This document shows positions 220-42,908 of a stretch of 43,530 nt of DNA, in pieces (within the stretch, counting starts at the first letter, position 1; the number at the start of each line of letters is the position of its first letter). Origin of the DNA: a virus. Its lineage: Duplodnaviria > Heunggongvirae > Uroviricota > Caudoviricetes. A model generated the notes under the pieces. The model did not search any database, was not told where the DNA came from, and saw only the letters and a list, made by a program, of their open reading frames with translations. A program made the translations under genes and the position numbers. The stretch is taken from IMG/VR virus record IMGVR_UViG_2734482773_000003, positions 1 to 43,530 of that record; one strand, 5' to 3'.

Positions 220-1520
220 TGATCTCCAGAAAAAGAGCGCCCGGCGCGGGGCCGGGCAAAATGGGGGATAACTGAGCAGTGCTTTCGCACCCAATAGCCA
301 GCTCATAACTGGCTATCAGTTGCTTGACATCCTCCCCGTCCTAAAGGAAGGGGATTCCTACAGCTAGACGGCGATGCCCCGCCGCGAGAATGTTCTTTGC
401 GGCGTTCACGTCGCGGTCATGAGTGGTTCCGCACTCACAACAAGTCCATTCTCTTATTCGCAGGCCTGCTCTACCTTTCGGACTGTTGGCGGAGATAGCC
501 CCGCAACACGAACAAGCTTGGGTGGAATAACTTTCGTTGACCACTTCAAACACCACTGACCGCGCAATCGCTTTATATTCCAGTTGTGTTTTGAGCATGA
601 ACCAGCCAGCGTCCAAAATGCTTTTTGCCATTTTGGTTTTAACCAGTTTCTTACTGCTCGCGTCGCCTACGAATATTGCCGCATGGCTGTTAACCAGCGC
701 CGTGCTGTACTTGTGCAGGGCATCTTTGCGGCGGTTCTTAATTTTGGCGTGTATGGCGCGTACACGGGCTTTTTTGTTTGCACGCTGTGCCTTTCCTAAT
801 GCAGGCTCCAGATCTCGATAGAATCTACCGGCAATCAGCGGATCACCTTCTGACGGGGTGGCGTAGTCTTTCAGCCCTAAATCGATACCCACGGCGGAAG
901 TGGCCGTTGATGGGACAGTTTCGACCTCTACGCAAACATTGAAGTACCAGCGTCCACGGCTGTCTTCTGAAAAGCTTCCAGCACGGAATTTAAATCCTCC
1001 CAAGCCGTAGCTATCCCAGACATTAAAAATCCTGCCAGCGAACCGCACCGCGCCATTTTTCCAGACAGCGCTGCCTATTTTAAACGGCACCCAACCCAAC
1101 GAACGGCGAGATCCCCCACTGACTCGCCAGCGTAAGCGAGAGCGTTTAAATTGCTTCCGTGCCTTGCCGTGAATTGCTGCGATTTCCTGTACGGTATGGC
1201 TGGGGATGGTATACCCGCGCTCTTTTCGCTCTTTAAGGAGCGGTTTCTGAACATCAAACGCCGATAGCCATTGCGGTTTTTGCGCGCCAAAAAAGCCAGC
1301 GTTGCCGTATGCTGCGCTGGTTATCTCGTTTGCCAGATTAAAGATCTGATTGACCTCAAAGGCCATCTGCCGCAAAACGGCTGCGTGCTTGTCTTTAATT
1401 CGGACAGATAGTGTTTTGATCTGAATGTTCATGGTCGTATGTACATATAATGTGTTGATGTTCAGTTGATCGTCGTTATTTGGCGGGATGTCACCCGCCA
1501 CACGGCGATGCGCTGATGCT
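220..1520 (-). mobile_element. TnpB-only IS200/IS605-like insertion sequence (ends approximate)
   Basis: tnpB with no tnpA; subterminal hairpins on both sides of the gene: ggcgggatgtcacccgcc at 1482..1499 (left-end side) and cccggc-gcggg-gccggg at 240..256 (right-end side); exact termini not determined. Confidence 0.45.
341..1432 (-). CDS. tnpB: IS200/IS605-family TnpB (RuvC-like RNA-guided endonuclease), 363 aa
   Basis: ORF 341..1501(-); ATG at 1432 (MNIQIKTLSVRIKDKHA... typical TnpB N-terminus); C-terminal zinc finger CSCCG...CCECG and RuvC-III-like DRDVNAAKNI motif. Confidence 0.8.
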   Translation of the reverse strand: MNIQIKTLSVRIKDKHAAVLRQMAFEVNQIFNLANEITSAAYGNAGFFGAQKPQWLSAFDVQKPLLKERKERGYTIPSHTVQEIAAIHGKARKQFKRSRLRWRVSGGSRRSLGWVPFKIGSAVWKNGAVRFAGRIFNVWDSYGLGGFKFRAGSFSEDSRGRWYFNVCVEVETVPSTATSAVGIDLGLKDYATPSEGDPLIAGRFYRDLEPALGKAQRANKKARVRAIHAKIKNRRKDALHKYSTALVNSHAAIFVGDASSKKLVKTKMAKSILDAGWFMLKTQLEYKAIARSVVFEVVNESYSTQACSCCGAISANSPKGRAGLRIREWTCCECGTTHDRDVNAAKNILAAGHRRLAVGIPFL

Positions 1521-4719: not shown

Positions 4720-5691
4720 TCAGTAATGAATTTTCGCGCAGGGGATCAGGTCATCTTTCAGAGCGGTAAGCACTTCGATAGCCTGCTCGCGGGTTAAGCT
4801 GGTTTGGCTGGTGAGCGCGTTAACGATGTTGGTGCCGACCGTCTTGCGGTGCTTAACGTCAGCTTCACGCTTTGCCTGCTCATCGGCGAGGCGCTTCTCT
4901 TCGGCCAGGCGGGCATCTTCGGCCTGTTTGGCCTTCAGGCGCTCGGCTTCAACCGCCGCGGCTTTTTCGCGTTCCGCCCGGGCTTCCGCTTCCTGCTTCT
5001 CGCGAGCTGCACGCTGTTCCGCTTCGACGCGCTGGCGCTCCGCCAGTTCAGCGCGGGCTTTCTCTTCGGCTTCACGGCGCGCTGCGGCTTCAATCTCCGC
5101 TTTGTGCTTCGCTTCGGCATCGCGGCGGGCTTGTTCTGCCGCTTCCTGTTTCAGCCGCTCATCACGTTCACGCTGAGCCTGTTCCGCCAGACGGCGCTGC
5201 TCTTCGCGGTCACGGTCAAAATCCTTGTTCATCAGTAGAGCCATTTCGTGGTCCGCTTCGAACTTGGCAGCCAGTTCCTGATCGAACCTGATGTTCATCT
5301 CCAGCGCTTCGGCGTGCATCGCGTTCATGGCTTCTTCAGCCTTAATGCGTTCCTGCTCGGCTTCCCATTCGGTGAGTGGGCGGCGGGTCGCATCGCGCAG
5401 CTCGTCGCAGGCATCAACGAATCGCTTAATTTCGGCCTCAGCCGGACGCACAGCCTCTTTCAGGCGCTTCAGGTACTCACGGCCCGGCTTTTCGATTGCC
5501 GTCTTGCTGCGGGACACCTGCGCTGCCAGAGAGGCAACACGGTCACGGCCTTTCTTCGTGGACAGGTCCGGCACTTCGTTTACAGCCTGGCGGATTTGCT
5601 CAAGGTACGCGTCAAGGCCGCCCGCTACGTAAAGCACTGGGGCCTGTTCCGGCTTGATTTCGATGACAGTTAAGTCCGTTACTTCGCTCAT
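4720..5691 (-). CDS. phage protein with long charged E/R/K/A-rich coiled-coil segment
   Basis: ORF 4720..5805(-); ATG at 5691 with GGAG upstream; central roughly 150 aa is highly repetitive (EAEARAEREKAAAVEAERLKAKQAE...). Confidence 0.55.
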   Translation of the reverse strand: MSEVTDLTVIEIKPEQAPVLYVAGGLDAYLEQIRQAVNEVPDLSTKKGRDRVASLAAQVSRSKTAIEKPGREYLKRLKEAVRPAEAEIKRFVDACDELRDATRRPLTEWEAEQERIKAEEAMNAMHAEALEMNIRFDQELAAKFEADHEMALLMNKDFDRDREEQRRLAEQAQRERDERLKQEAAEQARRDAEAKHKAEIEAAARREAEEKARAELAERQRVEAEQRAAREKQEAEARAEREKAAAVEAERLKAKQAEDARLAEEKRLADEQAKREADVKHRKTVGTNIVNALTSQTSLTREQAIEVLTALKDDLIPCAKIHY

Positions 5692-5761
5692 GGTTTCTCC
5701 TGAAATTTGGATGTGCAGATCCCGCCCGCGTAATGCCAGGCCGAACGGTTGAATAGGGTGG

Positions 5762-5971
5762 TTAGTGCTGGATAGGGTTGCCGTGACCGTCAAGAAGGAC
5801 GTCAATCACGCAGTCACTGAGTCGGATTATTTCTGCGTCAGTGTGCAGGTATACCCATTTGCGCTCCTGAATGACTGCTGAGACGCGATATGTGCGGCCT
5901 TCATGCAATGCCATCATGCCGGGCGTGACGCACTGGCGAATGAGCGGGGTGGTGTCGTAGTGGTTGATCAT
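5762..5971 (-). CDS. hypothetical small phage protein (69 aa)
   Basis: ATG at 5971 with GAGGTGAAGG upstream; ATGA overlap with the stop of the upstream gene. Confidence 0.45.
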   Translation of the reverse strand: MINHYDTTPLIRQCVTPGMMALHEGRTYRVSAVIQERKWVYLHTDAEIIRLSDCVIDVLLDGHGNPIQH

Positions 5972-8469: not shown

Positions 8470-8703
8470 ATGAGCACTGAACTACACCGCTGGCGCAAGG
8501 CCGCCACTACCGACGAATGGGCGCAGCTCGCAAAGTTGGCTAACACGACGCCAGGTTACCTGGACCAGATCGCCTACGGAAATCGCCGGGCATCTCCAGA
8601 AATGGCATCTGCTATCGAGAAAGGCACGAAGAATTTTCACCGCCAGGCTCCGGTCCTAAAAGAAAGCCTGGTATTCGCATCGCCGCGTGATACTGCGGCC
8701 TAA
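8470..8703 (+). CDS. cro: Cro-like HTH regulator (YdaS/Cro type)
   Basis: ATG 8470 with GGAG upstream; HTH-like segment EWAQLAKLANTTPGYLDQIAYGNRRASPEMASAIEKGT; first rightward gene divergent from cI. Confidence 0.7.
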   Translation: MSTELHRWRKAATTDEWAQLAKLANTTPGYLDQIAYGNRRASPEMASAIEKGTKNFHRQAPVLKESLVFASPRDTAA

Positions 8704-8720
8704 CCACGAAAGGGAAAGCA

Positions 8721-9263
8721 ATGCATTCACTTGCGTATCAACACAATACCGGAATACACCCGGGAGCGATGATAAACCGCGCTCAACCTAAGGCGGCGCC
8801 TGACCACGAAAAGATCCGCGATGCGGTCCGGGCATGGTCTTCGGCGCTGGACAATCAGGACGTCGTTTCGGCACTGATCATCAACGAATACCGGGAGCAG
8901 GGCGGGACCGCCATCAGCTTTCCTGACGACATCAGCCGTGCGCGCCAGAAGCTGTTCCGCTTCCTGGATAACCGTTTCGACTCCGAACAGTACCGCGAGA
9001 ACGTGCGCCAGCTGACACCCGCAATCATGTCCGTATTGCCGCTGGAGTACCGCAACCGCCTGGCGCCGCAGAACGACACGATGTCGCTGATCGCTTCTGC
9101 GATGAAAGAGTGTGCTGAAGCTAAACAGGCCGTGCTTTTGGACGCCCCAGAGCATCAGAAGCTGAAAGAGGTAAGCGAGGGTATAGCTTCGCTGTTCCGC
9201 CTCATGCCGGAGCAGGTAGGCCCACTGATGACGATGGTCACGTCGATGCTGGGGGTTATGTGA
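8721..9263 (+). CDS. YdaT-like regulatory protein (CII-position analogue)
   Basis: ATG 8721 with AAGGGA upstream; LTPAIMSVLPLEYRNRL region resembles Rac-prophage YdaT (from memory); sits immediately after cro. Confidence 0.55.
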   Translation: MHSLAYQHNTGIHPGAMINRAQPKAAPDHEKIRDAVRAWSSALDNQDVVSALIINEYREQGGTAISFPDDISRARQKLFRFLDNRFDSEQYRENVRQLTPAIMSVLPLEYRNRLAPQNDTMSLIASAMKECAEAKQAVLLDAPEHQKLKEVSEGIASLFRLMPEQVGPLMTMVTSMLGVM

Positions 9264-17394: not shown

Positions 17395-17895
17395 ATGAAA
17401 CTGGAATTAACCAACGAGCAGCATCAGTGGATTGATCAGTGGCTCCAGTTGTGGGGTGCATGGTCGCAGACCGGGAAGATAGACAAGGCGATGATCAACA
17501 TGATTGCCAAGTTTATGGCGACCGTCGAACCGCAGCAGGCATCTCGCCCGGTATGTAGCGACGACGACGGTATGCTGATTGACGCAGTGCTGCGCCATTA
17601 CCTGAAAAATATCGACGAGAACGCCTGGCGTGTTGTCTTCGCCTATTACGTCTGCAACTCCAGTGAGATCCGCATCGCCAGCTGGCAGCACGCTGTGAGC
17701 AAACCTCGAGTGATGAAGACGCGTGGCGGGAATCAGTATAAGCACCCGAGCATATCCACCATACGCCGGGAGGTGAAGGAAACACTTAACGCGGCACTGT
17801 TCTGCCTGTATCAACCGCTGCAAAATGCCTTTATCAGCCGCGATAATGTGAACAAAGTTGCAAAAAATGTTCACAACGTGCTTGCTTTTCAATGA
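17395..17895 (+). CDS. putative late-gene antiterminator (Q position)
   Basis: AAGGAGG upstream of ATG 17395; last early gene before the terminator/tRNA/lysis region; assignment is by position, no motif-level match claimed. Confidence 0.45.
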   Translation: MKLELTNEQHQWIDQWLQLWGAWSQTGKIDKAMINMIAKFMATVEPQQASRPVCSDDDGMLIDAVLRHYLKNIDENAWRVVFAYYVCNSSEIRIASWQHAVSKPRVMKTRGGNQYKHPSISTIRREVKETLNAALFCLYQPLQNAFISRDNVNKVAKNVHNVLAFQ

Positions 17896-17987: not shown

Positions 17988-18063
17988 GCTGATTTAGCTC
18001 AGTAGGTAGAGCGCCTGCCTTGTAAGCAGGATGTCGGCGGTTCAACTCCGTCAATCAGCACCA
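17988..18063 (+). tRNA. tRNA-Thr (anticodon UGU)
   Basis: 76-nt cloverleaf folded by hand: 7-bp acceptor stem GCTGATT/AATCAGC, D-arm GCTC/GAGC, anticodon stem CCTGC/GCAGG with loop CTTGTAA (U33, anticodon TGT, A37), T-arm GGCGG/CCGTC with TTCAACT loop, encoded CCA. Confidence 0.8.
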
Positions 18064-18242: not shown

Positions 18243-18467
18243 ATGTATCGCATGGAAAAAATAACCACTGGTGCTGCCTATGGCGCTTCAGCCGGGAGCA
18301 TCCTAAACGGCATGCTTAATGCCTACAGCCCCGAGCAGTGGAACGCTATCGGCGTGCTGGTGGGTATCATCATTGCCGTACTGACGTATCTGACGAATCT
18401 CTATTTCAAGATCCGCGAAGACAACCGCCGCAGCAGGAGCCGAGATGAACCCAACGTTGAGGAATAA
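18243..18467 (+). CDS. class II holin (phage 21 S-type pinholin) with dual-start motif
   Basis: [19 protein letters not shown]...[16 protein letters not shown] closely parallels the S21 pinholin (from memory); two in-frame starts M1 (18243) and M4 (18252) separated by Arg. Confidence 0.8.
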
Positions 18468-18939
18468 GCTGGTGGGTGCCATTGTTGGCGGATCCGGAGC
18501 CATCACCATTGCTGCAGTAATGCTGGGCAATGCCGATGGGCTGGAAGGACGGCGCTATTACGCCTATCAGGATGTGGTCGGCGTCTGGACTGTTTGCGAT
18601 GGGCACACCGGAGCGGACATTCGCCGCGGTCACCGATACACCGACAAAGAGTGCGACAACATGCTGAAGGCCGATCTGCGAAAGGTGGCAAATGCTATCG
18701 ACCCGCTGATCAAGGTTCGCATTCCTGAGCCAACCCGCGCCGCGCTTTACTCCTTCACCTATAACGTTGGCTCTGGTGCTTTTGCCAGCTCGACGCTGCT
18801 GAAGAAGCTGAACGCCGGAGACGTGCCGGGGGCATGCAAAGAACTGCAACGCTGGACGTATGCCGGTGGCAAGCAGTGGAAGGGACTGATAACCCGGCGC
18901 GAGATTGAGCGCGAAGTTTGCGAGTGGGGCCAGAAATGA
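18445..18939 (+). CDS. SAR endolysin (T4-lysozyme-type muramidase with N-terminal signal-anchor-release domain)
   Basis: N-terminal weakly hydrophobic Gly/Ala-rich [20 protein letters not shown]; catalytic E...D...T arrangement ([23 protein letters not shown]); start overlaps the holin 3' end. Confidence 0.85.
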
Positions 18940-19397
18940 GCCGATTAACAGCAATCATCTGTGCTGTCGTTATCTGCCTGCTCGTTTCCATGGCCTGGGC
19001 GATTAACCACTACCGCGACAACGCCATCGCTTATAAAGACCAGCGCGATAAAGCCACTGAGAAACTCAGCCTGGCTAACACCACCATAAAAGACATGCAG
19101 GCCCGCCAGCGTGATGTCGCTGCACTGGATGCCAAATACACCGGAGAACTAGCTGATGCGAAAGAAACCATTGAGCGTCTGCATAGCGATGTCATTGCTG
19201 GCCGTAAGCGGCTGCAGCTCAACGCAAACTGTCCCGCGAACGGAACGACCGGCTCCAGCGGCATGGGCGATGCTTCCGGCCCCCGACTTACTGACTCCGC
19301 TGAACGGGATTATTTCACCCTCAGAGAAAGAATCGCCACAGTGATGAAGCAGGTTGGCTATCTTCAGGAATATCTAAGCACTCAGTGCTTGAAGTAA
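18936..19397 (+). CDS. Rz: Rz-like inner-membrane spanin
   Basis: ORF 18918..19397; ATG 18936 overlapping the endolysin stop (ATGA); N-terminal TM helix [20 protein letters not shown] then coiled coil. Confidence 0.75.
19156..19344 (+). CDS. Rz1: Rz1-like outer-membrane lipoprotein spanin, embedded in Rz in the +1 frame
   Basis: signal peptide with lipobox LAVSGC, Pro-rich mature region, C-terminal [10 protein letters not shown] resembling lambda Rz1; fully nested inside Rz. Confidence 0.7.
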
Positions 19398-19465
19398 AGG
19401 TTTTCTTAATAGTTGCATCTGGTTGTATTGTAGGCTCTGTCTACAACAAAATAAGGTGCTCATAT

Positions 19466-20047
19466 ATGCAACAGTTGCTGAGTGGAATAGATGATTGCTT
19501 GTCTAAAAAGAATTGGTTTGGTGCTTTATTCATAGCAATATCACTTCCTGACATCTGTGGCGCGACAGAGGATAAAATCAAAGGAAATGGCGCGAGGTAC
19601 AAGGACTGGTTTAATCGCTATCTTAAGCCAAGATATAACGCTGATAACATGTATGACTATTTAAGTCTCACCAGCCCTGCAATGGTTCAGAGCATGCCTG
19701 AAGGAATAAAGCAAAGCTTAAGGGCGCAAAAACCCGTAGTCTCATTCACTGCAGAAGACTGTTGGAGTTTAAGGAATGCATGTTTGCATGAAGGCGTTGA
19801 TGAAACGAAGCTAAGGAAGTTTAAGATAACGACCCCTGCGCGAGAAAACCTTCATGCACATATGAATGCTTTTAATGGTGTTCTGCAATTAGATGTTATT
19901 GAGTTATGTAATGATATAGCTAATGGCGTGAGGAGATGGCTTGTTGATATGCAAGAAAATCCTGAGGTTATGGAAAAACTTACGAAAATGATGACCATCG
20001 ATAGTCTGATTTTTGACGGGTTTATTGAATACAAAACTGCAAAATAA
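19466..20047 (+). CDS. AT-rich inserted gene: HEPN-motif protein (candidate RNase / abortive-infection-type toxin)
   Basis: ORF 19385..20047; ATG 19466 with AAGGTG 7 nt upstream; visibly AT-rich against GC-rich flanks; contains RNACLH (Rx4H, HEPN-type); own terminator downstream; sits between Rz and the terminase genes. Confidence 0.5.
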   Translation: MQQLLSGIDDCLSKKNWFGALFIAISLPDICGATEDKIKGNGARYKDWFNRYLKPRYNADNMYDYLSLTSPAMVQSMPEGIKQSLRAQKPVVSFTAEDCWSLRNACLHEGVDETKLRKFKITTPARENLHAHMNAFNGVLQLDVIELCNDIANGVRRWLVDMQENPEVMEKLTKMMTIDSLIFDGFIEYKTAK

Positions 20048-20070
20048 TACAGCCATATTATTGAATTGTA

Positions 20071-20100
20071 ATGCCATCACCATGCTGATGGCATTTTCTT
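20071..20100 (+). terminator. intrinsic terminator after the inserted HEPN-motif gene
   Basis: hairpin atgccatca-ccatgc-tgatggcat 20071..20094 followed by tttctt. Confidence 0.55.
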
Positions 20101-20124: not shown

Positions 20125-20343
20125 ATGTCCGACATCTACCAAATCACGCTAACCACTCAAACAGGCGAAACCTTCACGGGCAAGATGTCACGACGTCAGC
20201 CTGAGTTGGTTAATGGCTTTGTGCCGCTGGCGACAGAGACGGGCGAGTGGCTTTATTTCGCTCCGGCCGATGTGAAGCGCGTGCAGTTTACGCCAGTACC
20301 GGCAGAGCAGACCGAACAGCCAGCAGGACAAACAACGGAGTAA
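20125..20343 (+). CDS. hypothetical small protein (72 aa)
   Basis: ORF 20113..20343; ATG 20125 with GAGGGT upstream; immediately precedes the terminase small subunit. Confidence 0.45.
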   Translation: MSDIYQITLTTQTGETFTGKMSRRQPELVNGFVPLATETGEWLYFAPADVKRVQFTPVPAEQTEQPAGQTTE

Positions 20344-20346
20344 CGA

Positions 20347-20997
20347 ATGAGCAAACCGGACTGGGAGGCCATCGAGACGGCGTACCGGGCCGGAGTGATG
20401 TCCCTCCGAGAAATTGCTTCACAGCACGGTATTAGCGAAGGCGCTATCCGTAAGCGTGCCAAGCGTGACGACTGGTCGCGTGACCTCAATGCGAAGATTC
20501 AGCAAAAGGCTGATGATCTGGTACGCAAACAGGAGGTACGCAAACAGGTACGCAACGAAAGCACTTTGACCGAGCGCGTACTGATAGAGGCGACTGCCGA
20601 GGTAATTGCCACGGTACGCATGGAGCACCGGGGAGACATCCGCCGGGCTCGTGAACTGACCAACACGCTATTCGATGAACTTGGTGCGCAGTGCGCAGAT
20701 GTAAGCGCGCTCGAGCAGTTGGGCGACATCATGTTTGACCCCGACGATAAAGGGCGGGACCGGCTCAATGAAATTTATCAGAAAGTGATCAGCCTGCCTT
20801 CCCGCGTTAAATCCATGAAAGACCTGAGCGACAGCCTAAAGACGCTGATCGGCCTCGAGCGTGAGGCATACAGCATCGAGAATAAGGCTGAAACGAAAGA
20901 GGTCACCCATAACGTCATGCTGGTGCCAACCAGTGACAACGTGGATGACTGGGAGGCGGCAGCGCAGAAACATCAGGACGGGGTGCTCGGTGGATGA
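20347..20997 (+). CDS. terminase small subunit (HTH-containing)
   Basis: GGAG upstream; N-terminal HTH (MSLREIASQHGISEGAIRKRAKRDDW); directly precedes and overlaps the large terminase. Confidence 0.7.
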   Translation: MSKPDWEAIETAYRAGVMSLREIASQHGISEGAIRKRAKRDDWSRDLNAKIQQKADDLVRKQEVRKQVRNESTLTERVLIEATAEVIATVRMEHRGDIRRARELTNTLFDELGAQCADVSALEQLGDIMFDPDDKGRDRLNEIYQKVISLPSRVKSMKDLSDSLKTLIGLEREAYSIENKAETKEVTHNVMLVPTSDNVDDWEAAAQKHQDGVLGG

Positions 20998-22556
20998 ATT
21001 ACAAAGCTGTATGGAAGCCACTGCCTGGATCTCAGTCCCTGGCGCTGAGCTGCCCGTGTAACGAAATCCTGTTCGAGGGCACTCGCGGACCGGGCAAGAC
21101 AGCTGCGCAGTTAGCCAGGTTCAGGCGTAATGTCGGCGTGGGTTATGGCTCGTTCTGGCGCGGCGTCATTTTCGACACCGAATATAAGAACCTTGCCGAC
21201 ATCATCACTCAGTCGAAGCGTATGTTTCGCCTATTCAACGACGGTGCGCGCTATCTGTCATCTGCGAGCGAATTGCGATGGGTATGGCCCACAGGCGAGG
21301 AACTTCTCTTCCGCTTCGGCAAAGAGGCAGACGACTACTGGGATTTCCACGGGCAGGAATTCCCGTTTATCGGCTTTAACGAGCTGACTAAACAGCAGTC
21401 CCCGGAATTCTACGAAATGATGTTCTCGTGCCGACGTTCATCGTTCAGGCCGGAAAACTACCCGCTGGAGAATGGCAAGTTACTGAGGCCAATCCCGCTA
21501 GAGACATTCAGCACGACCAACCCGTTTGGCATCGGGCATACCTGGGTGAAGAAGCGCTTCATTGAGCCAGCGCCGCGCGGAACCGTACAGCGCGACCGGC
21601 AAATGGTATTCAACCCTCAGACTGAGCGAGAAGAGGAAATCACGCTGACCCGCGTGGCAATCCACGGCTCGTTTAAAGAAAACCCGTACCTCGACCCGCA
21701 GTACATCGCGACCCTGATGGCCATCAAAGACCCTAACCGACGCAAGGCCTGGGTAGAGGGCTCCTGGGATGTGACCAGTGGCGGACGATTTGACCACCTG
21801 TGGAATGAAGCGCTGCACGTCATTAAGCCGTTCCGCATACCGGATAGTTGGACCGTCGACCGCTCCCATGACTGGGGTGAGTCGAAGCCGTTCTCTAACC
21901 TCTGGTGGGCCCAAGCTGACGGCACTGCCGCCGAGCTGCCAGATGGTCGACAGTTCTGCCCGCCGGCTGGTTCGATAATCCTGATCGGAGAATGGTACGG
22001 CTGCCCGCCTGACGAGCTGAACAAAGGCCTGAACATGTCATCCACCAACGTCGCGAAAGGCGTGGCGTGGATTGACAAGCGGCTTGTGGGCGAAGACGTC
22101 GACGAGCCGGAAGAGATTCAAATCGACGGGGTCACGCAGGGCCAACTCAACATTGTGCCGGGAATTTGCTCGGAGGTTATTCCTGGCCCAGCTGATAGCG
22201 CCATTTTCAACACTGGCGACGATGAGTTATCGATCGGTCAGAAAATGGAAAATCAGGGTGTTGAATGGCTTGAGGCCAATAAGAAGCCAGGCTCTCGAGT
22301 CAACGGGGCTTCGGTATTCGCCGACATGCTTGAGGCGGTGGTTGAGGGTAAGAAGCTGGAATCTGGAATTCCTGAGAAGCCTGCTTTTTACGTGTTGGAG
22401 CATTGCCGTGGCTGGATTAGCCGCATACCCGTGCTGGTTCGCGACAGCAAAAACCCGGATGACGTAGATACCCAGCAGGAAGACCACGACTGGGATGCTA
22501 CCCGTTACCGCGTGCTGCACTCACCTCGCCGTTCAGGGGCGATATTCTTCACATAA
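20994..22556 (+). CDS. terminase large subunit
   Basis: 520 aa; Walker A-like GTRGPGKT; nuclease-domain acidic residues in the C-terminal half; canonical position. Confidence 0.9.
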   Translation: MNYKAVWKPLPGSQSLALSCPCNEILFEGTRGPGKTAAQLARFRRNVGVGYGSFWRGVIFDTEYKNLADIITQSKRMFRLFNDGARYLSSASELRWVWPTGEELLFRFGKEADDYWDFHGQEFPFIGFNELTKQQSPEFYEMMFSCRRSSFRPENYPLENGKLLRPIPLETFSTTNPFGIGHTWVKKRFIEPAPRGTVQRDRQMVFNPQTEREEEITLTRVAIHGSFKENPYLDPQYIATLMAIKDPNRRKAWVEGSWDVTSGGRFDHLWNEALHVIKPFRIPDSWTVDRSHDWGESKPFSNLWWAQADGTAAELPDGRQFCPPAGSIILIGEWYGCPPDELNKGLNMSSTNVAKGVAWIDKRLVGEDVDEPEEIQIDGVTQGQLNIVPGICSEVIPGPADSAIFNTGDDELSIGQKMENQGVEWLEANKKPGSRVNGASVFADMLEAVVEGKKLESGIPEKPAFYVLEHCRGWISRIPVLVRDSKNPDDVDTQQEDHDWDATRYRVLHSPRRSGAIFFT

Positions 22557-32372: not shown

Positions 32373-33005
32373 ATGGAAAGACAGTACGCAGTACTTCTTG
32401 ACGCAGGGTTCTTGCGCCGAAAATTAGGTACTCAGGCAGCACCAATGACAGCTCAAAATGTCGAAGATTTAGTTAATAAAATTAAAGCACGAGCTGAGTT
32501 ATTAGGGATGCGGTTGTATCGTGTGTTTTATTACGACGCTGAGCCTTTCACGGGTACTAAGACACATCCTATATCCAACGCTGTTATTAACTTTGGCGCT
32601 ACACAAATGGCCATTGATTGTAATACATTGTTAGATGAGCTTAAGGTCAAGCCTTTTTTTGCTGTGCGCCTAGGGGAACTCAATTTTAGAGGGTGGAAGG
32701 TTTCTGATGCTGCTCTTCAGTCAGGTGCAGGAGGGACGGCAACAATTAATGCTCATAATGTTTCTCCCAATCTTCAGCAGAAAGGTGTGGATATGAGGAT
32801 CGCATTAGATATCTCATCTATGACTTTAAAAAACCAAGCAGACGTTTTTTGCTTGGTAACAGGTGACTCAGATTTTGCACCCATCATCAAATTTGCGAGA
32901 TCTGAAGGAAAGCAAGTATTCACTTATACTCTCGGTCATAGAGTCAAACCATCTTTGCCTATTCATTCTGACCTCCATATCCCTGAAACGTACGCTAATT
33001 TGTAA
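32373..33005 (+). CDS. AT-rich inserted gene: NYN/LabA-like (PIN-fold) nuclease-domain protein
   Basis: 210 aa; motifs AVLLDAGFL, KGVDMRIALD and LVTGDSDFAPIIKFARSEGKQV match the NYN/LabA acidic-residue signature (from memory); visibly AT-rich; flanked by its own promoter and terminator inside the tail module. Confidence 0.6.
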   Translation: MERQYAVLLDAGFLRRKLGTQAAPMTAQNVEDLVNKIKARAELLGMRLYRVFYYDAEPFTGTKTHPISNAVINFGATQMAIDCNTLLDELKVKPFFAVRLGELNFRGWKVSDAALQSGAGGTATINAHNVSPNLQQKGVDMRIALDISSMTLKNQADVFCLVTGDSDFAPIIKFARSEGKQVFTYTLGHRVKPSLPIHSDLHIPETYANL

Positions 33006-33062: not shown

Positions 33063-35993
33063 ATGGCAGGTGAGAAAAACGCCGGTAGCATCGTTTATGA
33101 AGTCAGCGCCAATATTGAGCCGCTGCTGCAGGGCGGTAAACAGGCCATTGATGCTCTGGATAAACTGGATGCTGCAGCCCAGCAGTCCGGGAAGGGAATG
33201 GATAACCTCGACCAGAGCACGTCTCAAACCGGATCCGCTTTTACTGAACTGGCTGGTTATGCCAATTCCATGGATAACCAGCTGCGCAAGCTGAACACCA
33301 ACGTGAGCGGAATTGCCCGCGCTATGGAAGAGGCCCGCAGCGGTACCGGCGGCGCGAGCAGTGAATTCAGTCGCGCAGAATCAATCATCGAGGCGCTGGG
33401 TAACCAGCTGGCTGTGCTGGACGAAGCGCAGGAGAATGGCGCGCGTAGTGCCGCGGTTCTGGCAGCCCAGCTCCGAGCCGGGTCAAAAGCTACAGACGAA
33501 GAGAAGCAGAAGATCGGCGAATTGACTGGGCGGCTCTTCGACATGAAAGGCGCTGCTGATACCTCGATGGGCAGTAATAAAGGCTGGAAGGCCAGCATGC
33601 AGCAGGCTGGTTATCAGGTTCAGGATTTCATAGTACAGGTGCAGGGCGGCCAGTCTGCGCTGGTGGCGTTCGCTCAGCAGGGGTCTCAACTCGCTGGTGC
33701 ATTCGGTCCCGGCGGCGCAGTCGTTGGTGCCATAATCGCGCTTGGTTCGGTGCTGGCTGGCGTGCTGATTACTTCGCTGAATGGCGGCAAGAATGCCATG
33801 GATGCGCTGAAAGACGCAGCTGAAGCGATGGATAAGGTTATCACCATTTCATCGCAAGGCGTGGCCGCGCTTTCCGACAAGTATGCTGCCCTGGCGCGCG
33901 TAAATGCCGACGTGGCTACTTTGCTGAGAAATCAGGCACTGCTCGAGTATAACCAGGCGATCTCAAAGATTCCTAAAGCCATTAGTGACGCGTCTGATGC
34001 TTTCATTACGTTAGGCGATCGCGCACTGGCGGCTGTTGGCGGTGCGTCTCCAAGCATCAAAAAGTTCAACGATGAGCTTTCTGCGCTTGGCGTTACCACA
34101 AATGACTGGAGCCAGGCCATTCAACAGGCCAACAGTCAGGGGCAATATGCCTCTGGCATTGTGAACTCTTTATCTTCAACGGTCAGCACGCTTTCTTCAC
34201 GCCTCGGCATCAGCAAGCAATCAGCGTTTGATCTTGCAAGAGAGTTATCAGACCTGAGCAACAACCCGTCGCCTGAAGCACTTCAGGAACTGGCGAAAAA
34301 GCTCCAGGAAATGAAGTCCTCCTCCAAAGATGGGCAGTCAGCCATTGCTGAGCTGGCTGGTAAACTTGTCGATCTGGCAAGAGAGGCAGCCAATGCGAAG
34401 ATCAATGTAGACAGCCTGAATAAGTCCACGGATAACCTTACCGCCGGACAGAAGAACCTGATCAAACAGTCCGAGCGCAACCTGGCACTCTCGAAGTTGC
34501 AGGGCGAGGCTCGCGCACGGTTGCAGGCGCAATACGCTGCCGAAGATGCTGGATTTGCGAAGGATGATCCGCATGCCAAGCAGATGGAAGATGATGCTGC
34601 CGCTACGTACAAAAATACGGAAGAGCAAAAGAAGCTTAAATCGGAGCAGAAAAAAGGAGCATCTCAGGCAGAAACCATTGCTCAGAAGCTGGCGAACCTG
34701 AAACAGCAGTCAGAACTCGCTGCCTATTCAACGAATAAGCTGAGCCGAGAGCAGGCTATTCTGAATGCGCAGCAGTCGCTCGGGAAAGGTGCCACCAAAG
34801 AGCAGATAGCACTTGCCGGTCAGTATGCGGCCAAAAAATGGGACACCGCCAACGCCATTAAGGCTCAGGCTGCAGCGGAGAAACTTCTTCCTGAGGCCCG
34901 CGAGAACGCCAGCTACAGGCAGGATGTTGAGGACCTGAATACCGCTCTGGCTGCGAAGAAAATCAGTCAGGAGCAGTTCAATCAGACATCCGAGCGACTG
35001 GAAGCAACTCACCAGGCCAACCTTGCGAAAATCCGTGCCGATCAGGCTGTCAGCCCACTGCAGGAAGCTGCTGGCGGTGTGGATCCGGTGCAGCAACTGG
35101 CGAATGAAAATGCCCGAAAACTCGCGCTTATTCAGGCTTACGAGCAGCAGGGGATTATTACTCACCAGAACGCGCTTATGCTGCGCGCATCAGCTGACAG
35201 GGAGTACGAGCAGGCTCGCATCGCGGCGCAATGGGAGATTTTCCGTAACCAGAGCGCAGGCAATGAAGCGCTGGCGGCGTCCTTTGATGCACTGGCCGGT
35301 AATGCGTCCAATGCCTTAACCGGCATCATCACCGGGAGCATGTCAGCTTCCGATGCTCTGCGCTCGATCGGGAATACCGTACTGAACAGCCTCATCAACA
35401 CCTTCGTCCAGATGGGCGTTGAGTGGGTTAAATCGGCAATCATGGGGCAGACGGCCACCACTGCAGCGGTTGCAGCATCTACCACGGCGCAGGCAGCAGG
35501 CATTGCCACTACCACGGCGACGTCTACCGCGGCGGCGGCGGCCACAACTGCAGCATGGACGCCAGCGGCCATCATGTCCTCCATTGCGTCATTCGGTGGA
35601 GCGGTGGCGATCGGCATCGGAGCTATGGCTGGCATCCTGGCACTGTCAGGAAAGCGTAAGAACGGCGGGCCGGTTAGTGCAAGCGGAATGTATCAGGTCG
35701 GCGAAGGTGGAATGCCGGAGATTTACCAGGCCAGCACCGGTAAGCAGTACATGATACCGGGCGACAACGGCAAGGTGATCAGCAACAAGGAAATGACTGC
35801 CGGAGGCGGTGGCGGGGTAATTTTGAATATCAACAATTACTCTTCAGCGTCGGTCGATGCACAGGCTACGCAGGGCAGTGACGGCACCTGGACTATCGAT
35901 ACATTCATCGCTGACATGAATAATGGTGGACCAGCAAGCCAGGCTATTACCAGCAATTTGAACGTTAAGCGCACGCCAAGGGGGCAGGGCTGA
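33063..35993 (+). CDS. tail tape measure protein
   Basis: 976 aa, largely alpha-helical Ala/Gln/Leu-rich with hydrophobic Gly/Ala segments; canonical position after the chaperone. Confidence 0.85.
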   Translation: MAGEKNAGSIVYEVSANIEPLLQGGKQAIDALDKLDAAAQQSGKGMDNLDQSTSQTGSAFTELAGYANSMDNQLRKLNTNVSGIARAMEEARSGTGGASSEFSRAESIIEALGNQLAVLDEAQENGARSAAVLAAQLRAGSKATDEEKQKIGELTGRLFDMKGAADTSMGSNKGWKASMQQAGYQVQDFIVQVQGGQSALVAFAQQGSQLAGAFGPGGAVVGAIIALGSVLAGVLITSLNGGKNAMDALKDAAEAMDKVITISSQGVAALSDKYAALARVNADVATLLRNQALLEYNQAISKIPKAISDASDAFITLGDRALAAVGGASPSIKKFNDELSALGVTTNDWSQAIQQANSQGQYASGIVNSLSSTVSTLSSRLGISKQSAFDLARELSDLSNNPSPEALQELAKKLQEMKSSSKDGQSAIAELAGKLVDLAREAANAKINVDSLNKSTDNLTAGQKNLIKQSERNLALSKLQGEARARLQAQYAAEDAGFAKDDPHAKQMEDDAAATYKNTEEQKKLKSEQKKGASQAETIAQKLANLKQQSELAAYSTNKLSREQAILNAQQSLGKGATKEQIALAGQYAAKKWDTANAIKAQAAAEKLLPEARENASYRQDVEDLNTALAAKKISQEQFNQTSERLEATHQANLAKIRADQAVSPLQEAAGGVDPVQQLANENARKLALIQAYEQQGIITHQNALMLRASADREYEQARIAAQWEIFRNQSAGNEALAASFDALAGNASNALTGIITGSMSASDALRSIGNTVLNSLINTFVQMGVEWVKSAIMGQTATTAAVAASTTAQAAGIATTTATSTAAAAATTAAWTPAAIMSSIASFGGAVAIGIGAMAGILALSGKRKNGGPVSASGMYQVGEGGMPEIYQASTGKQYMIPGDNGKVISNKEMTAGGGGGVILNINNYSSASVDAQATQGSDGTWTIDTFIADMNNGGPASQAITSNLNVKRTPRGQG

Positions 35994-39861: not shown

Positions 39862-41730
39862 ATGGCTACGACACCTACCAATCTTCCTGTTCCAAGTGAA
39901 TCACCGCGCGATCTGAAATTTAACGCCGGAAAAATAGACGAGTTTGTAACCTCAGGAAATCATGTTTATGTTGACAGGTTCGGCGATGAACATCGTACAA
40001 TTGCTGGCATAAATTACGATGCAAATCAGGCAATGCTGAATTATGGCTACATCACGAAGAAGTCTTTTGAAATTGGCGCTACCCTCGACACTCCTAACAC
40101 TGTTCTTCAGTGGGAGAGCAATGGCGAATACTACCGCTGGGATGGGGACTGGTCACAGCCCAAAGTAGTTCCCGCTGGTTCTACGCCTGATAGTACCGGT
40201 GGAATTGGGGAAGGGAAATGGGTTGGAGTAGGAGATGCTTCATTAAGGTCTGATTTGGCTGGTGCCGGTGGTTCAGATATGATCGGGACACCTAATGGAA
40301 CTGTGGAAGAAAGGCTTAATCAACTAAAGGATAAGGATGAAGATTTAGGGAAAAAGATAGTAACAACTATCATTCCATGTCCTACACCAACAATCGATAA
40401 TGGTGTAAAGGCTGTTGTGAAATCATCATCTGATGATGATTTTTATATTATCTCTAAAAGAGCCAATGGTAAGTCTGGCTTTATCGCTTTGCGCGTAACC
40501 AATGACGTATCAGTTTCTGATGCGAGCAACTACGGTGGTGCATCACCATTCCGTCCTGGATCTGTTGAGCGAGTGAGAGATGCGATTTATGCGAAGTTAG
40601 CTCCATCCACTAAATCATCTGGTGTTACTTTATCAACCCTAACTGCATCACAAATCGCAACACTTTATGGATTTACAGCAACCGGAAGTTCTATCAACGC
40701 AGTGACTGCAAGTGGCGATTTTTCGCTTATAAGCCCACAGGTATATAACGTTCCTAATGGCGAATCTGTTGTTTATAAGCTTGAAATGTCGAATAAAGCT
40801 ACAATTCGGCTTGGATGCTCTAATGGTGCTTCTACAACTGTAAATATAAGCATCAGTCGAGATGGAACTAACTGGCTTCTTCAGAAAACAGTTAACACAC
40901 AACTTCCTCCATCAGGTCTTGGTCCGCTACCTCTTGATATTGAAGTGAATGGTCTAAGTGGTGTTTGGTATGTTCGTGTATCAAATGGGCACGCCAACCC
41001 TCTGTATCTTGTCGGTCTGAATATTGGCTATATTGGTTCTGATAAAATATATGACTATGATGCATTCATTGCAACGATAGAGCCTGATTTGAGTACTGGA
41101 CCTTCATATTATTTCGGAGGTAATGGAGCTACAGAATTTGCAGCGAAAGAATTATCTACTGGTAAATTCTTCGGAACATTCCATGGTGGTCATAGTAATT
41201 TTCTTCAAAGATTAAGAACCGAATCAGCTTCTTATAACCTGGATAGCTCCACTGCACCAACTCTCTTGCTTACGAAGAATGCCACTTTACACAGCGCTTC
41301 TCTTATCACGGTGCAGTCATCAACATATAACTATGTGGCGTCAACACAGTTTGGTGATGGTGTGACTATCACTAATTTCGCACTTCAGAAGCAATCCGGA
41401 GAGGCAATTTTATGTGAGCGAATTTATACGCACATGGCAACATCTGCGCGAAACTTCGACTGGATACACCTTCCTGTTCTTCTGAATAAGACGGATGATG
41501 GGTATGTTCAGGTTGGTCAGTGCGGATTTATACAGCAATTCAGATCAGACGATGCGGCTTACGTTAACTGCTACTTTTCGCAAGTCAACGTCTCTGAAAA
41601 CGGCTATGGAGGGGCTTATGTTTCCTTCCAAAATAACTATAACAAGCAGTATTATGGGTCAGTATTTTCTTCTTCAGTAGGGGTTCCTCTTTCTGACGGC
41701 TCCTACACAACATGTAAAGAGTTTTTCTGA
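39862..41730 (+). CDS. tail fibre / tailspike protein with conserved N-terminal anchor and divergent AT-rich C-terminal receptor-binding region
   Basis: 622 aa; composition drops to AT-rich after roughly the first 150 codons; Ser/Thr/Asn/Gly/Tyr-rich C-terminus typical of beta-structured receptor-binding/depolymerase domains. Confidence 0.65.
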   Translation: MATTPTNLPVPSESPRDLKFNAGKIDEFVTSGNHVYVDRFGDEHRTIAGINYDANQAMLNYGYITKKSFEIGATLDTPNTVLQWESNGEYYRWDGDWSQPKVVPAGSTPDSTGGIGEGKWVGVGDASLRSDLAGAGGSDMIGTPNGTVEERLNQLKDKDEDLGKKIVTTIIPCPTPTIDNGVKAVVKSSSDDDFYIISKRANGKSGFIALRVTNDVSVSDASNYGGASPFRPGSVERVRDAIYAKLAPSTKSSGVTLSTLTASQIATLYGFTATGSSINAVTASGDFSLISPQVYNVPNGESVVYKLEMSNKATIRLGCSNGASTTVNISISRDGTNWLLQKTVNTQLPPSGLGPLPLDIEVNGLSGVWYVRVSNGHANPLYLVGLNIGYIGSDKIYDYDAFIATIEPDLSTGPSYYFGGNGATEFAAKELSTGKFFGTFHGGHSNFLQRLRTESASYNLDSSTAPTLLLTKNATLHSASLITVQSSTYNYVASTQFGDGVTITNFALQKQSGEAILCERIYTHMATSARNFDWIHLPVLLNKTDDGYVQVGQCGFIQQFRSDDAAYVNCYFSQVNVSENGYGGAYVSFQNNYNKQYYGSVFSSSVGVPLSDGSYTTCKEFF

Positions 41731-41798: not shown

Positions 41799-42908
41799 CT
41801 AAATTGCTGGTTTTCTTGTCTTGATTAAATTACCTGCCATATCAACCAAATATTTTCTTAATGCCAAGATAGCAAGGTTTATAATAATAGGGATAACAAT
41901 GCCTGCAACGATATAAACAGGCCAGTACAAAGGATCTGAAAAGTGCGACAAAGCCTTAGCTTTCCCTATTTCATACATTCCCATCCAGCCGAAAATAATA
42001 TCCAACAAAATGAATGCAAGTAAGTGGAAAGACATAATGCATTTGCTTTCCCTCCCTATGTAGAGAATGGTTTTCGACTTTATTGCTTTAGATAGCATGC
42101 AGGATAAGGAAAATACTATATATGAGCAAAGTAATATTTGAACATAAGTCAGCAAAAATCCATGCTTGTAGTTACTCCATGAAACCCCTATATCTCCGCT
42201 TAGCCCCAGTCGGCGCATAGTAATAACCAATAAAAACGCCAAGCACATCCAAAGCAAAGAAGGTGATTTAAATATCAAATCCTTAAATGTTTTTCCTATC
42301 AACATAAAGGCAAGCGCAAAGAGGATTTGAGAACCATAGTTATTTAATATATTCCATTCAGATTTGTATGCCACAGCAAGATAATCGATGGAAACCCAAC
42401 CACATGCTATGATAGTCAGAACGGATAAAATACTTTTCGCGGTTCTATTTAAATGTTTTGTTATGCGCAGATAGCAATATAGAAGGATGGATGCCATTGC
42501 ATATGCGAAAAGAAACCATGATACTAAAAATAAAAAACTAATATGCATATTAGTATTCAAAAAGTAAATGGCATAATCATAGATAGAGCTCTGAGCTTTA
42601 TATAGCCCTGAAATTCCAGTGCTCTCTTGTATAAGATATGAAACTAGCAATAAAAACATATCCACAATTACTATATAAAAAAAGAACTTTCTGATTATTA
42701 TACTAAGGAATTGTAGAGGGTTTTTATTCTCGTTAAATACAATTCCTCCAATCATGAAAAATAGAGGCATATGATACATATACGGCGTCATAACATTAAA
42801 TATGTTATTTGAGTAGTGCCCTATAACGACAACAATAATTCCAAGAGCCTTTGCATAATCAATAGCAGCTCTCCTGTATTGCTGATCATCATTGCTAATC
42901 GTATTCAT
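41799..42908 (-). CDS. acyltransferase-3 family integral membrane protein (putative O-antigen/polysaccharide O-acetyltransferase; lysogenic-conversion candidate)
   Basis: 369 aa with about 10 predicted TM helices; N-terminal RAAIDYAKALGIIVVVIGHY matches the acyltransferase-3 start motif; strongly AT-rich; AGGGTG upstream of ATG 42908; convergent with the tail fibre. Confidence 0.7.
   Translation of the reverse strand: MNTISNDDQQYRRAAIDYAKALGIIVVVIGHYSNNIFNVMTPYMYHMPLFFMIGGIVFNENKNPLQFLSIIIRKFFFYIVIVDMFLLLVSYLIQESTGISGLYKAQSSIYDYAIYFLNTNMHISFLFLVSWFLFAYAMASILLYCYLRITKHLNRTAKSILSVLTIIACGWVSIDYLAVAYKSEWNILNNYGSQILFALAFMLIGKTFKDLIFKSPSLLWMCLAFLLVITMRRLGLSGDIGVSWSNYKHGFLLTYVQILLCSYIVFSLSCMLSKAIKSKTILYIGRESKCIMSFHLLAFILLDIIFGWMGMYEIGKAKALSHFSDPLYWPVYIVAGIVIPIIINLAILALRKYLVDMAGNLIKTRKPAI

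Follow-up and report, generated by a model that had tools for sequence, protein, structure and literature searches.

What is an AT-rich gene doing between the lysis and packaging genes of a lambdoid prophage? The question is raised by IMG/VR virus record IMGVR_UViG_2734482773_000003 (Caudoviricetes), whose positions 1 to 43,530, a lambdoid prophage, were analysed here; this whole stretch of 43,530 nucleotides (nt) is referred to as the window. The gene concerned, the open reading frame (ORF) 19466..20047, encodes a protein of 193 amino acids (aa). An original prediction had seen in this protein a candidate HEPN-motif defence toxin that may act alone or with the adjacent 72-aa ORF. We found a constrained gene in a replaceable slot, whose product is likely to be a member of the HEPN superfamily. 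That it is a solo HEPN ribonuclease (RNase), carried as prophage cargo and protecting the lysogen by abortive infection, has in our judgement about an even chance of being right.

The protein, its family and its predicted fold

The ORF is preceded by an AAGGTG ribosome-binding site (RBS; 19453-19458) located 7 nt 5' of its ATG. Since the ratio of non-synonymous to synonymous divergence (dN/dS) is only 0.08-0.09, at a synonymous divergence (dS) of ~0.68, when it is compared with the 88-89% identical homologues of loci L004 and L012, the ORF is a constrained protein-coding gene under strong purifying selection and no decaying remnant.

No model in Pfam, NCBIfam or PADLOC matches the 193-aa protein, which does match PHROG 18591 (function unknown) at 5e-37. 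Close homologues with 45-88% identity occur in Enterobacter, Lelliottia, Citrobacter, Kosakonia, Klebsiella and Raoultella, and all of them are labelled hypothetical. A profile search of 1.84 billion representative proteins recovered 1,892 clusters (formed at 50% identity) at E <= 1e-3 and 762 at E <= 1e-10, with Methylomonas, Nitrospira, Qipengyuania, Methylophaga, Arthrobacter, Aeromonas and Pantoea among the named sources. Most members are ~170 aa long and are without roughly residues 60-88 of the window protein. The family was represented by three alignments, namely A1 with 18 sequences, A2 with 121 and A3 with 94, the last reaching down to 24% identity; a profile search of genome contigs with A1 recovered four loci only.

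Two AlphaFold2 models were obtained from different alignments and have the same secondary structure:

Model from A1 (18 sequences): predicted local distance difference test (pLDDT) 83.4, predicted template modelling score (pTM) 0.80
Model from A3 (94 sequences): pLDDT 91.0, pTM 0.86

In both, a helix at residues 2-13 is followed by a helix at 17-35, a helical insert at 41-87, a helix at 96-107, a loop and beta-hairpin at 113-143, a helix at 144-162 and a short C-terminal helix. The predicted four-helix up-down bundle superposes on solved HEPN domains. Foldseek against the PDB gave no match below E = 1, and in a second search on the fold the top 7 matches were all HEPN; the HEPN proteins named among the fold results are YutE, Csm6, SO_3166, TTHA0636, HI0074, the sacsin HEPN domain and Las1. 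The features of the protein that bear on this assignment are the following:

19547-19552, + strand: P28-D29, with an invariant acidic residue in predicted helix 2 (99-100% conserved; within helix 17-35)
19772-19789, + strand: R103-N-A-C-L-H108, the putative HEPN Rx4H catalytic motif, so placed by the conservation of R103 and H108 and by its position in the model
19820-19894, + strand: beta-hairpin insert between helix 3 and helix 4, at about residues 119-143 (DSSP strands 119-122, 134-136 and 139-143 in both models)

The presence of RNACLH, on which the original prediction had built its case, is confirmed at residues 103-108. The Rx4-6H motif alone is weak evidence, because such a motif arises in 35% of shuffles of the window protein (Rx4H in 13%) and because the protein carries a second, non-conserved one (Rx5H, R126..H132); its weight comes from conservation and position. 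Both R103 and H108 are retained in 99% of A2 and in 100% of A3, and P28, D29 and W48 are likewise 99-100% conserved in both of these diverse alignments. In the model, R103 belongs to the end of the third core helix (96-107), and the loop that leads from there to the fourth (144-162) starts with H108. This is the position described for the HEPN motif, in which the Arg stands at a helix end and the His opens the loop. The same description of the superfamily (Anantharaman et al. 2013, PMC3710099) mentions that helix 2 of HEPN families commonly carries, near the motif, a conserved acidic residue; it also lists a helical insert that separates helices 2 and 3, and N, D or H as the polar residue right after the Arg. 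The modelled placement of D29 in helix 2, the insert that follows this helix and the motif position match that description, as does the Asn after the Arg in the window protein and its clade. The insert consists of helical segments at 41-87 between helix 17-35 and helix 96-107, and it is here that relatives are mostly shorter, by ~25 residues. Departures from the HEPN description are the Cys that most family members have right after the Arg and the beta-hairpin between helices 3 and 4, with its H132 conserved in 88-94% of sequences. Taken together, predicted structure and motif geometry make membership of the HEPN superfamily probable.

A variable slot between lysis and packaging genes

The gene lies at the lysis-to-packaging junction, as had been stated in the original prediction, with Rz on its left and orf72, TerS and TerL on its right. 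The order of features is as follows:

17395-17895, + strand: antiterminator Q, part of the gene order around the ORF
17988-18063, + strand: tRNA-Thr (UGU), between Q and the holin gene
Between tRNA-Thr and lysozyme, + strand: holin, by gene order
18445-18939, + strand: lysozyme (Pfam Phage_lysozyme, 5e-44)
18936-19397, + strand: Rz spanin gene, left border of the variable slot (Pfam Phage_lysis, 8.4e-43; phrog_13, 4e-70)
19398-19465, + strand: non-coding leader of the cassette (68 nt), containing the RBS
19466-20047, + strand: cargo gene for the 193-aa protein with predicted HEPN fold
20070-20095, + strand: hairpin AATGCCATCA-ccatgc-TGATGGCATT, with a perfect 10-bp stem (-25 kcal/mol, z = -2.8)
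20125-20343, + strand: orf72, a 72-aa ORF and backbone gene upstream of TerS (phrog_6581, function unknown, 1.6e-38)
20347-20997, + strand: TerS (phrog_1206)
20994-22556, + strand: TerL, by gene order

Base composition sets the gene apart from its surroundings, and the earlier claim that it is AT-richer than its flanks holds: its GC content is 0.395 and its GC content at third codon positions (GC3) 0.387, against 0.53-0.58 and 0.59-0.67, respectively, for lysozyme, Rz, orf72, TerS and TerL. The GC content of the whole window is 0.525.

Among 5,426 complete E. coli genomes, only one contains the gene (locus L001, where it is annotated 'hypothetical protein'). Two related prophages, at L002 and L003, have kept Rz and orf72 and carry other small genes between them, namely an unrelated 175-aa ORF (L002, 2139-2666) and a 66-aa ORF (L003, 2137-2337), each with a canonical terminator and neither with a match in Pfam. 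The homology of the window to relatives with other cargo stops at ~19372-19393 and restarts at 20088; therefore, the gene sits in a true replaceable cassette. A second variable slot was observed between orf72 and TerS, where some relatives have a reverse-strand ORF of ~170 aa (L001, 5091-5603 (-); L003, 2709-3224 (-)) and the window is empty.

Juhala et al. and Hendrix et al., both in 2000, are reported to have described the lambdoid 'moron' as an added gene that is flanked by conserved neighbours, lacking in relatives, deviant in base composition and equipped with its own promoter and terminator. The gene studied here is additional between conserved neighbours, missing from relatives and deviant in base composition, and a horizontally acquired cargo gene, or moron, at the end of the lysis cassette is its best explanation. 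The position of the tRNA-Thr is taken in sister prophages by tRNA-Asn, by tRNA-Met or by no tRNA. A link between tRNA-Thr and the gene, for instance as a replacement tRNA, was rejected given that each occurs without the other.

The leader may be under constraint of its own, since only 9 of its 68 positions differ from L004 and L012 despite a dS of ~0.68 in the gene, which hints at a regulatory function. A promoter within 19398-19465 is possible; the best match found by hand is a weak one (TTCTTA, 17 nt, TATTGT).

Downstream, the hairpin begins 23 nt past the stop codon of the gene. Owing to its weak T tract (TTCTTCA), the terminator scan did not call it. Its core, TGCCATCACCATG...ATGGCA, also lies in a longer form 5' of orf72 in L002 and L003, which do not have the gene; the cargo genes of these relatives have GC-rich, T-tailed terminators, and the element comes after these as a separate feature. 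Given this distribution, the hairpin belongs to the backbone and is no specific part of the cassette. It was thus rejected both as an RNA antitoxin and as the terminator belonging to the gene, for which it had been taken in the original prediction (20071..20100). A strong terminator does belong to the homologue with 47% identity. The hairpin TGCCAT...ATGGCA is found, in a short or a long form, 30-40 nt upstream of the phrog_6581 ORF in prophages whose cargo differs (window, 20070-20095; L002, 2690-2735; L003, 2362-2410), and this conserved element might serve ahead of the packaging genes for termination with read-through, for processing or for regulation.

The adjacent 72-aa ORF had been suggested to act with the gene or to neutralize its product, and this is contradicted by their independent occurrence: L002 and L003 have orf72 without the gene, and L014, L016, L030 and L035 have the gene without orf72. 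Consequently, orf72 is a backbone gene and not a dedicated partner, and its role as antitoxin was rejected.

The wider distribution of the family was examined at the level of genomic neighbourhoods. Homologues of 62-100% identity always follow lysis genes and precede packaging genes, with terminase and portal modules that differ between prophages, and a 33% identical homologue in Pantoea occupies the same position between Rz and terminase in an unrelated lambdoid prophage. Larger cargo regions between Rz and terminase contain the 47% identical homologue of Enterobacter cancerogenus and a 34% identical one in phage ECP1. The ECP1 homologue (E = 3e-30; L037, 5001-5474, corresponding to 8614-9087 of the record) has no gene annotated at its position in RefSeq/GenBank and is apparently a missed gene call. 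In temperate phages of other kinds, homologues were found beside the integrase (a Qipengyuania prophage, gp32 of Gordonia phage Bowser and Acinetobacter phage TCUAN1), and in an Arthrobacter prophage upstream of the terminase. One homologue shares an Aeromonas island with Fic and NERD genes, and another copy adjoins a PIN/DUF433 toxin-antitoxin pair and a D5 primase. Eight phage records contain a homologue; those whose neighbourhoods were inspected are all temperate, with an SPbeta-like phage and the Acinetobacter MD-2021a contigs lying outside this inspection.

Across ~16 lineages, which comprise lambdoid, actinophage, Acinetobacter, alphaproteobacterial and chromosomal contexts, no neighbour of the gene is conserved, and the stand-alone action envisaged in the original prediction is supported on this ground. 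Downstream ORFs of similar appearance in two distant lineages were considered and rejected, given that they are not homologous to each other. Tandem repeats of the type III antitoxin kind were searched for and none were found. In L042, which represents a distant lineage, the ORF at 5359-5934 (+), directly 5' of the family member, contains IRNKFAHYQSY, which is of the RNxxxH type, and may be a second, tandem HEPN-like gene.

Proposed function and competing explanations

We propose, with confidence evenly balanced, that the protein is a solo HEPN RNase that a prophage carries to protect its lysogen by abortive infection. A real and constrained gene, a variable slot, a fold and motif geometry of the HEPN kind and the lack of a partner gene are the observed parts of this proposal. 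It is also favoured by the company that homologues keep, even those of 33-47% identity, in cargo regions between Rz and terminase, beside integrases, and in islands with Fic and NERD genes or a PIN pair. What we infer is that the protein is an RNase, that the lysogen expresses it, that a trigger activates it and that it confers defence. The protein would adopt a HEPN fold whose core of four helices is extended by a helical insert after helix 2 and a beta-hairpin after helix 3; in this fold R103 and H108, aided by D29 and N104, would form a metal-independent RNase site. It would be made in the lysogen and kept there as an inactive oligomer until a component of a superinfecting phage switched it on; the activated protein might then cut tRNA, rRNA or mRNA, so that the infected cell would yield no progeny, and the resident phage would escape by not supplying the trigger. 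This mechanism is proposed by analogy with other prophage HEPN proteins that act alone, such as HepS and gp57r.

Several results weigh against the proposal. With 121 diverse relatives and two consensus sequences as queries, Pfam returned no HEPN family and no consistent family, and sequence searches of the PDB with profiles A1 and A2 were empty. DUF4145 is an accepted HEPN family; against its alignment of 45 sequences (A4, built from a neighbouring gene in L029), hhalign gave the family of the window protein a probability below 1%, DUF4145 being the sole HEPN family compared profile to profile. Thus, sequence-profile similarity to established HEPN families (Pfam clan CL0291, PF187xx) was found neither by Pfam nor by hhalign against DUF4145, and of the HEPN assignment made in the original prediction the part that stands is the agreement of the AlphaFold2 fold and the motif position with HEPN, not a link between sequence profiles. 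The residue after the motif Arg is Asn in the window protein and its clade (RNACLH) and Cys in 82-84% of the wider family (RCAxLH). No defence model of PADLOC matches the protein, and about one-third of the inspected loci of distant homologues look like ordinary chromosome. In the window itself, a sigma-70 scan found no + strand promoter in the 68-nt leader, and the gene runs in the same direction as the Q-dependent late operon, expression in the lysogen being a supposition of the proposal.

The results on the sequence profiles bear directly on the alternative that the protein is no active HEPN RNase, being instead a helical-bundle regulator that binds nucleotides or proteins, or a Cys/His metal-binding protein, with the Arg and His serving a structural or ligand-binding role. 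We consider this unlikely. The missing sequence-level link to HEPN families would fit it, as would the good conservation of C31, C99, C148 and H132, the Cys found at position 104 in most members and the frequency with which Rx4-6H arises by chance, whereas the position of the motif, the Asp of helix 2 and the insert between helices 2 and 3 all fit the HEPN description. A Cys/His metal site in particular was judged unlikely, given that 5-15% of members have Ala, Thr or Ser in place of C31 and C148, a pattern expected of packing residues and not of metal ligands. The promoter scan and the gene's orientation bear on a different alternative, to which we assign a low probability, in which the RNase would serve the lytic cycle of the phage itself and be transcribed only in the Q-dependent late operon, leaving the lysogen unprotected. 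It would degrade RNAs of the host or of competitors, or would counter host defence, for instance through cleavage of defence RNAs or of cyclic-oligonucleotide signals, the latter being cut by some Csm6 HEPN domains. The same orientation as the late genes, a place inside the operon between Rz and TerS, a leader in which no sigma-70-like promoter was found and a downstream hairpin that is a backbone feature rather than a dedicated terminator are what a late gene of this kind would have. However, the gene is dispensable and rare, with close relatives having no such gene or other genes in the slot; the inspected phage records with a homologue are all temperate; in non-lambdoid phages the homologues adjoin the integrase, far from the late operons; and many others are chromosomal or located in islands with toxin-type genes.

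Among HEPN RNases, many act as the toxin in toxin-antitoxin pairs, such as HepT/MntA and RnlA/RnlB, and the gene could in principle encode the toxin of such a pair with an antitoxin that has gone unrecognized, either orf72 or a small RNA like the one with a small hairpin that neutralizes AbiV. The stable hairpin 23 nt past the stop codon and the unusually conserved non-coding leader lend themselves to this explanation, which we nonetheless regard as very improbable: orf72 and the gene are each found without the other, relatives that do not have the gene share the hairpin, and tandem repeats resembling a type III antitoxin were not found. Moreover, there is no MNT or other partner in any lineage, the ORFs flanking distant homologues are mutually unrelated, and there are documented cases of solo HEPN proteins that do no harm before they are triggered. 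A bolder possibility is that the family acts in phage counter-defence, as a late-expressed stand-alone viral HEPN nuclease that would destroy a host immune RNA or a cyclic-oligonucleotide messenger, with the beta-hairpin giving specificity, and this we hold to be highly unlikely. In a less radical version, the family of ~1,900 clusters could represent a new class of single-protein sensor-effector RNases whose hairpin insert senses a phage protein.

If the proposal of a solo defence RNase is correct, it would add a further lineage, of ~1,900 clusters, to the one-protein HEPN immune RNases, a lineage whose members now bear the label 'hypothetical' everywhere and for which Pfam, NCBIfam and PADLOC have no model. 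The concept of a solo prophage HEPN RNase is already known and no longer surprising, and only a few such RNases have been worked out so far (HepS in 2026, gp57r and Tha). The junction after Rz would be marked as a hotspot of defence cargo in lambdoid phages of Enterobacteriaceae, and a compact, partner-free RNase would become available whose trigger and RNA target could be found by plaque and escape-mutant work. Naming the family would improve the annotation of prophages and of defence genes.

Three further genes of the window deserve mention. A second AT-rich, cargo-like gene (32373-33005 (+); GC 0.417, GC3 0.346) lies among the tail genes, just 5' of a 976-aa ORF (33063-35993), and encodes a 210-aa product with an NYN nuclease domain (Pfam, 1.3e-12); the prophage may thus carry two independent RNase-type accessory genes. 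After the tailspike gene (39862-41730 (+)) there is a very AT-rich acyltransferase_3 gene (41799-42908 (-); GC 0.34), an arrangement typical of a lysogenic-conversion gene that modifies the O antigen. Near the left end of the window, a gene resembling TnpB / IS605 OrfB (341-1501 (-)) encodes a Cas12f1-like TNB domain (8e-22).

Comparison with known HEPN systems

Differences separate the window protein from several established HEPN systems. HepT/MntA and the minimal HEPN proteins (AF0298, YutE and TTHA0636) differ in that the window gene has no adjacent nucleotidyltransferase gene, its neighbours being Rz and phrog_6581, and in that its product has no DUF86/HEPN match in Pfam and is ~60 residues larger because of the helical insert and the beta-hairpin. 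Unlike the Csx1/Csm6 HEPN proteins of type III CRISPR systems, the window protein has no CARF sensor domain and no CRISPR context, and identity over the aligned part is 14-16%. AbiV of Lactococcus (PDB 9BJ5 and 9BJ7) typically does not have the motif His and uses an alternative one (PMC3710099), and it is neutralized by an RNA containing a small hairpin, the abiV2 RNA (bioRxiv 10.1101/2024.05.05.592566). AbiV requires this RNA, whereas no such element is linked to the window gene: the protein has no match to Pfam HEPN_AbiV, there are no repeats, and the sole nearby hairpin is the backbone element. Dazbog DzbB was also considered and rejected, as PADLOC gave weak matches in 6 of the 121 relatives (best E = 0.0012) and none for the window protein or the consensus sequences, and no locus has a DUF262 (DzbA) neighbour.

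Tha is a HEPN RNase of Staphylococcus prophages by which the lysogen is protected; a structural (tail) protein of the incoming phage activates it (PMC11087260). The window protein, with its putative RNase role, would be like Tha a prophage-encoded HEPN RNase. Tha is larger, with its catalytic His at residue 270. An antisense operon of the lysogeny module encodes Ith, an inhibitor dedicated to Tha, to which nothing at the window gene is comparable.

A further counterpart is gp57r of mycobacteriophage Butters, a solo HEPN protein with the motif RDRCAH (94-99) that is sufficient for defence and non-toxic, and that is escaped by mutations in minor tail proteins (bioRxiv 10.1101/2023.01.03.522681). 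Both proteins are ~190 aa long, stand-alone and encoded by temperate phages; in both, an R-x4-H near residue 100 precedes a segment predicted to be rich in strands and, after it, a helix, and the best remote matches were to the Csx1 'DxTHG' family. In contrast to the window gene, the gp57r gene is on the reverse strand in the early region, and its homologues are found in mycobacteriophages only. The gp57r sequence was recovered from the genome, and neither the family hidden Markov model (HMM) nor hhalign detected homology between it and the family.

Another parallel is offered by HepS (STM14_3211; PDB 9OIJ and 9OIK) of the Salmonella prophage Gifsy-1, a single HEPN protein without a partner and with the motif R100-H105. 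It is made constitutively as a non-toxic, inactive tetramer. When a siphovirus infects, its tail-tip protein (J) opens the tetramer, and HepS then cleaves tRNAs in their anticodon loops; Gifsy-1 itself escapes through a non-triggering tail-tip variant (PMC13043305). Like HepS, the window protein is one small protein (<250 aa) with a single predicted HEPN domain, encoded by an accessory gene of a lambdoid prophage, with its Rx4H at nearly the same position (R103-H108) and with no partner or immunity gene, and the homologues of both are scattered over distant bacteria, often in prophages. Unlike the window, Gifsy-1 of LT2 encodes no member of the family, and no homology of the family to HepS was detected in the PDB sequence searches or in the LT2 Gifsy-1 record. 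The likeness to HepS and gp57r is therefore one of kind and not of membership, and the family described here appears to be a new and so far unannotated one within a known kind, that of the solo prophage HEPN effectors.

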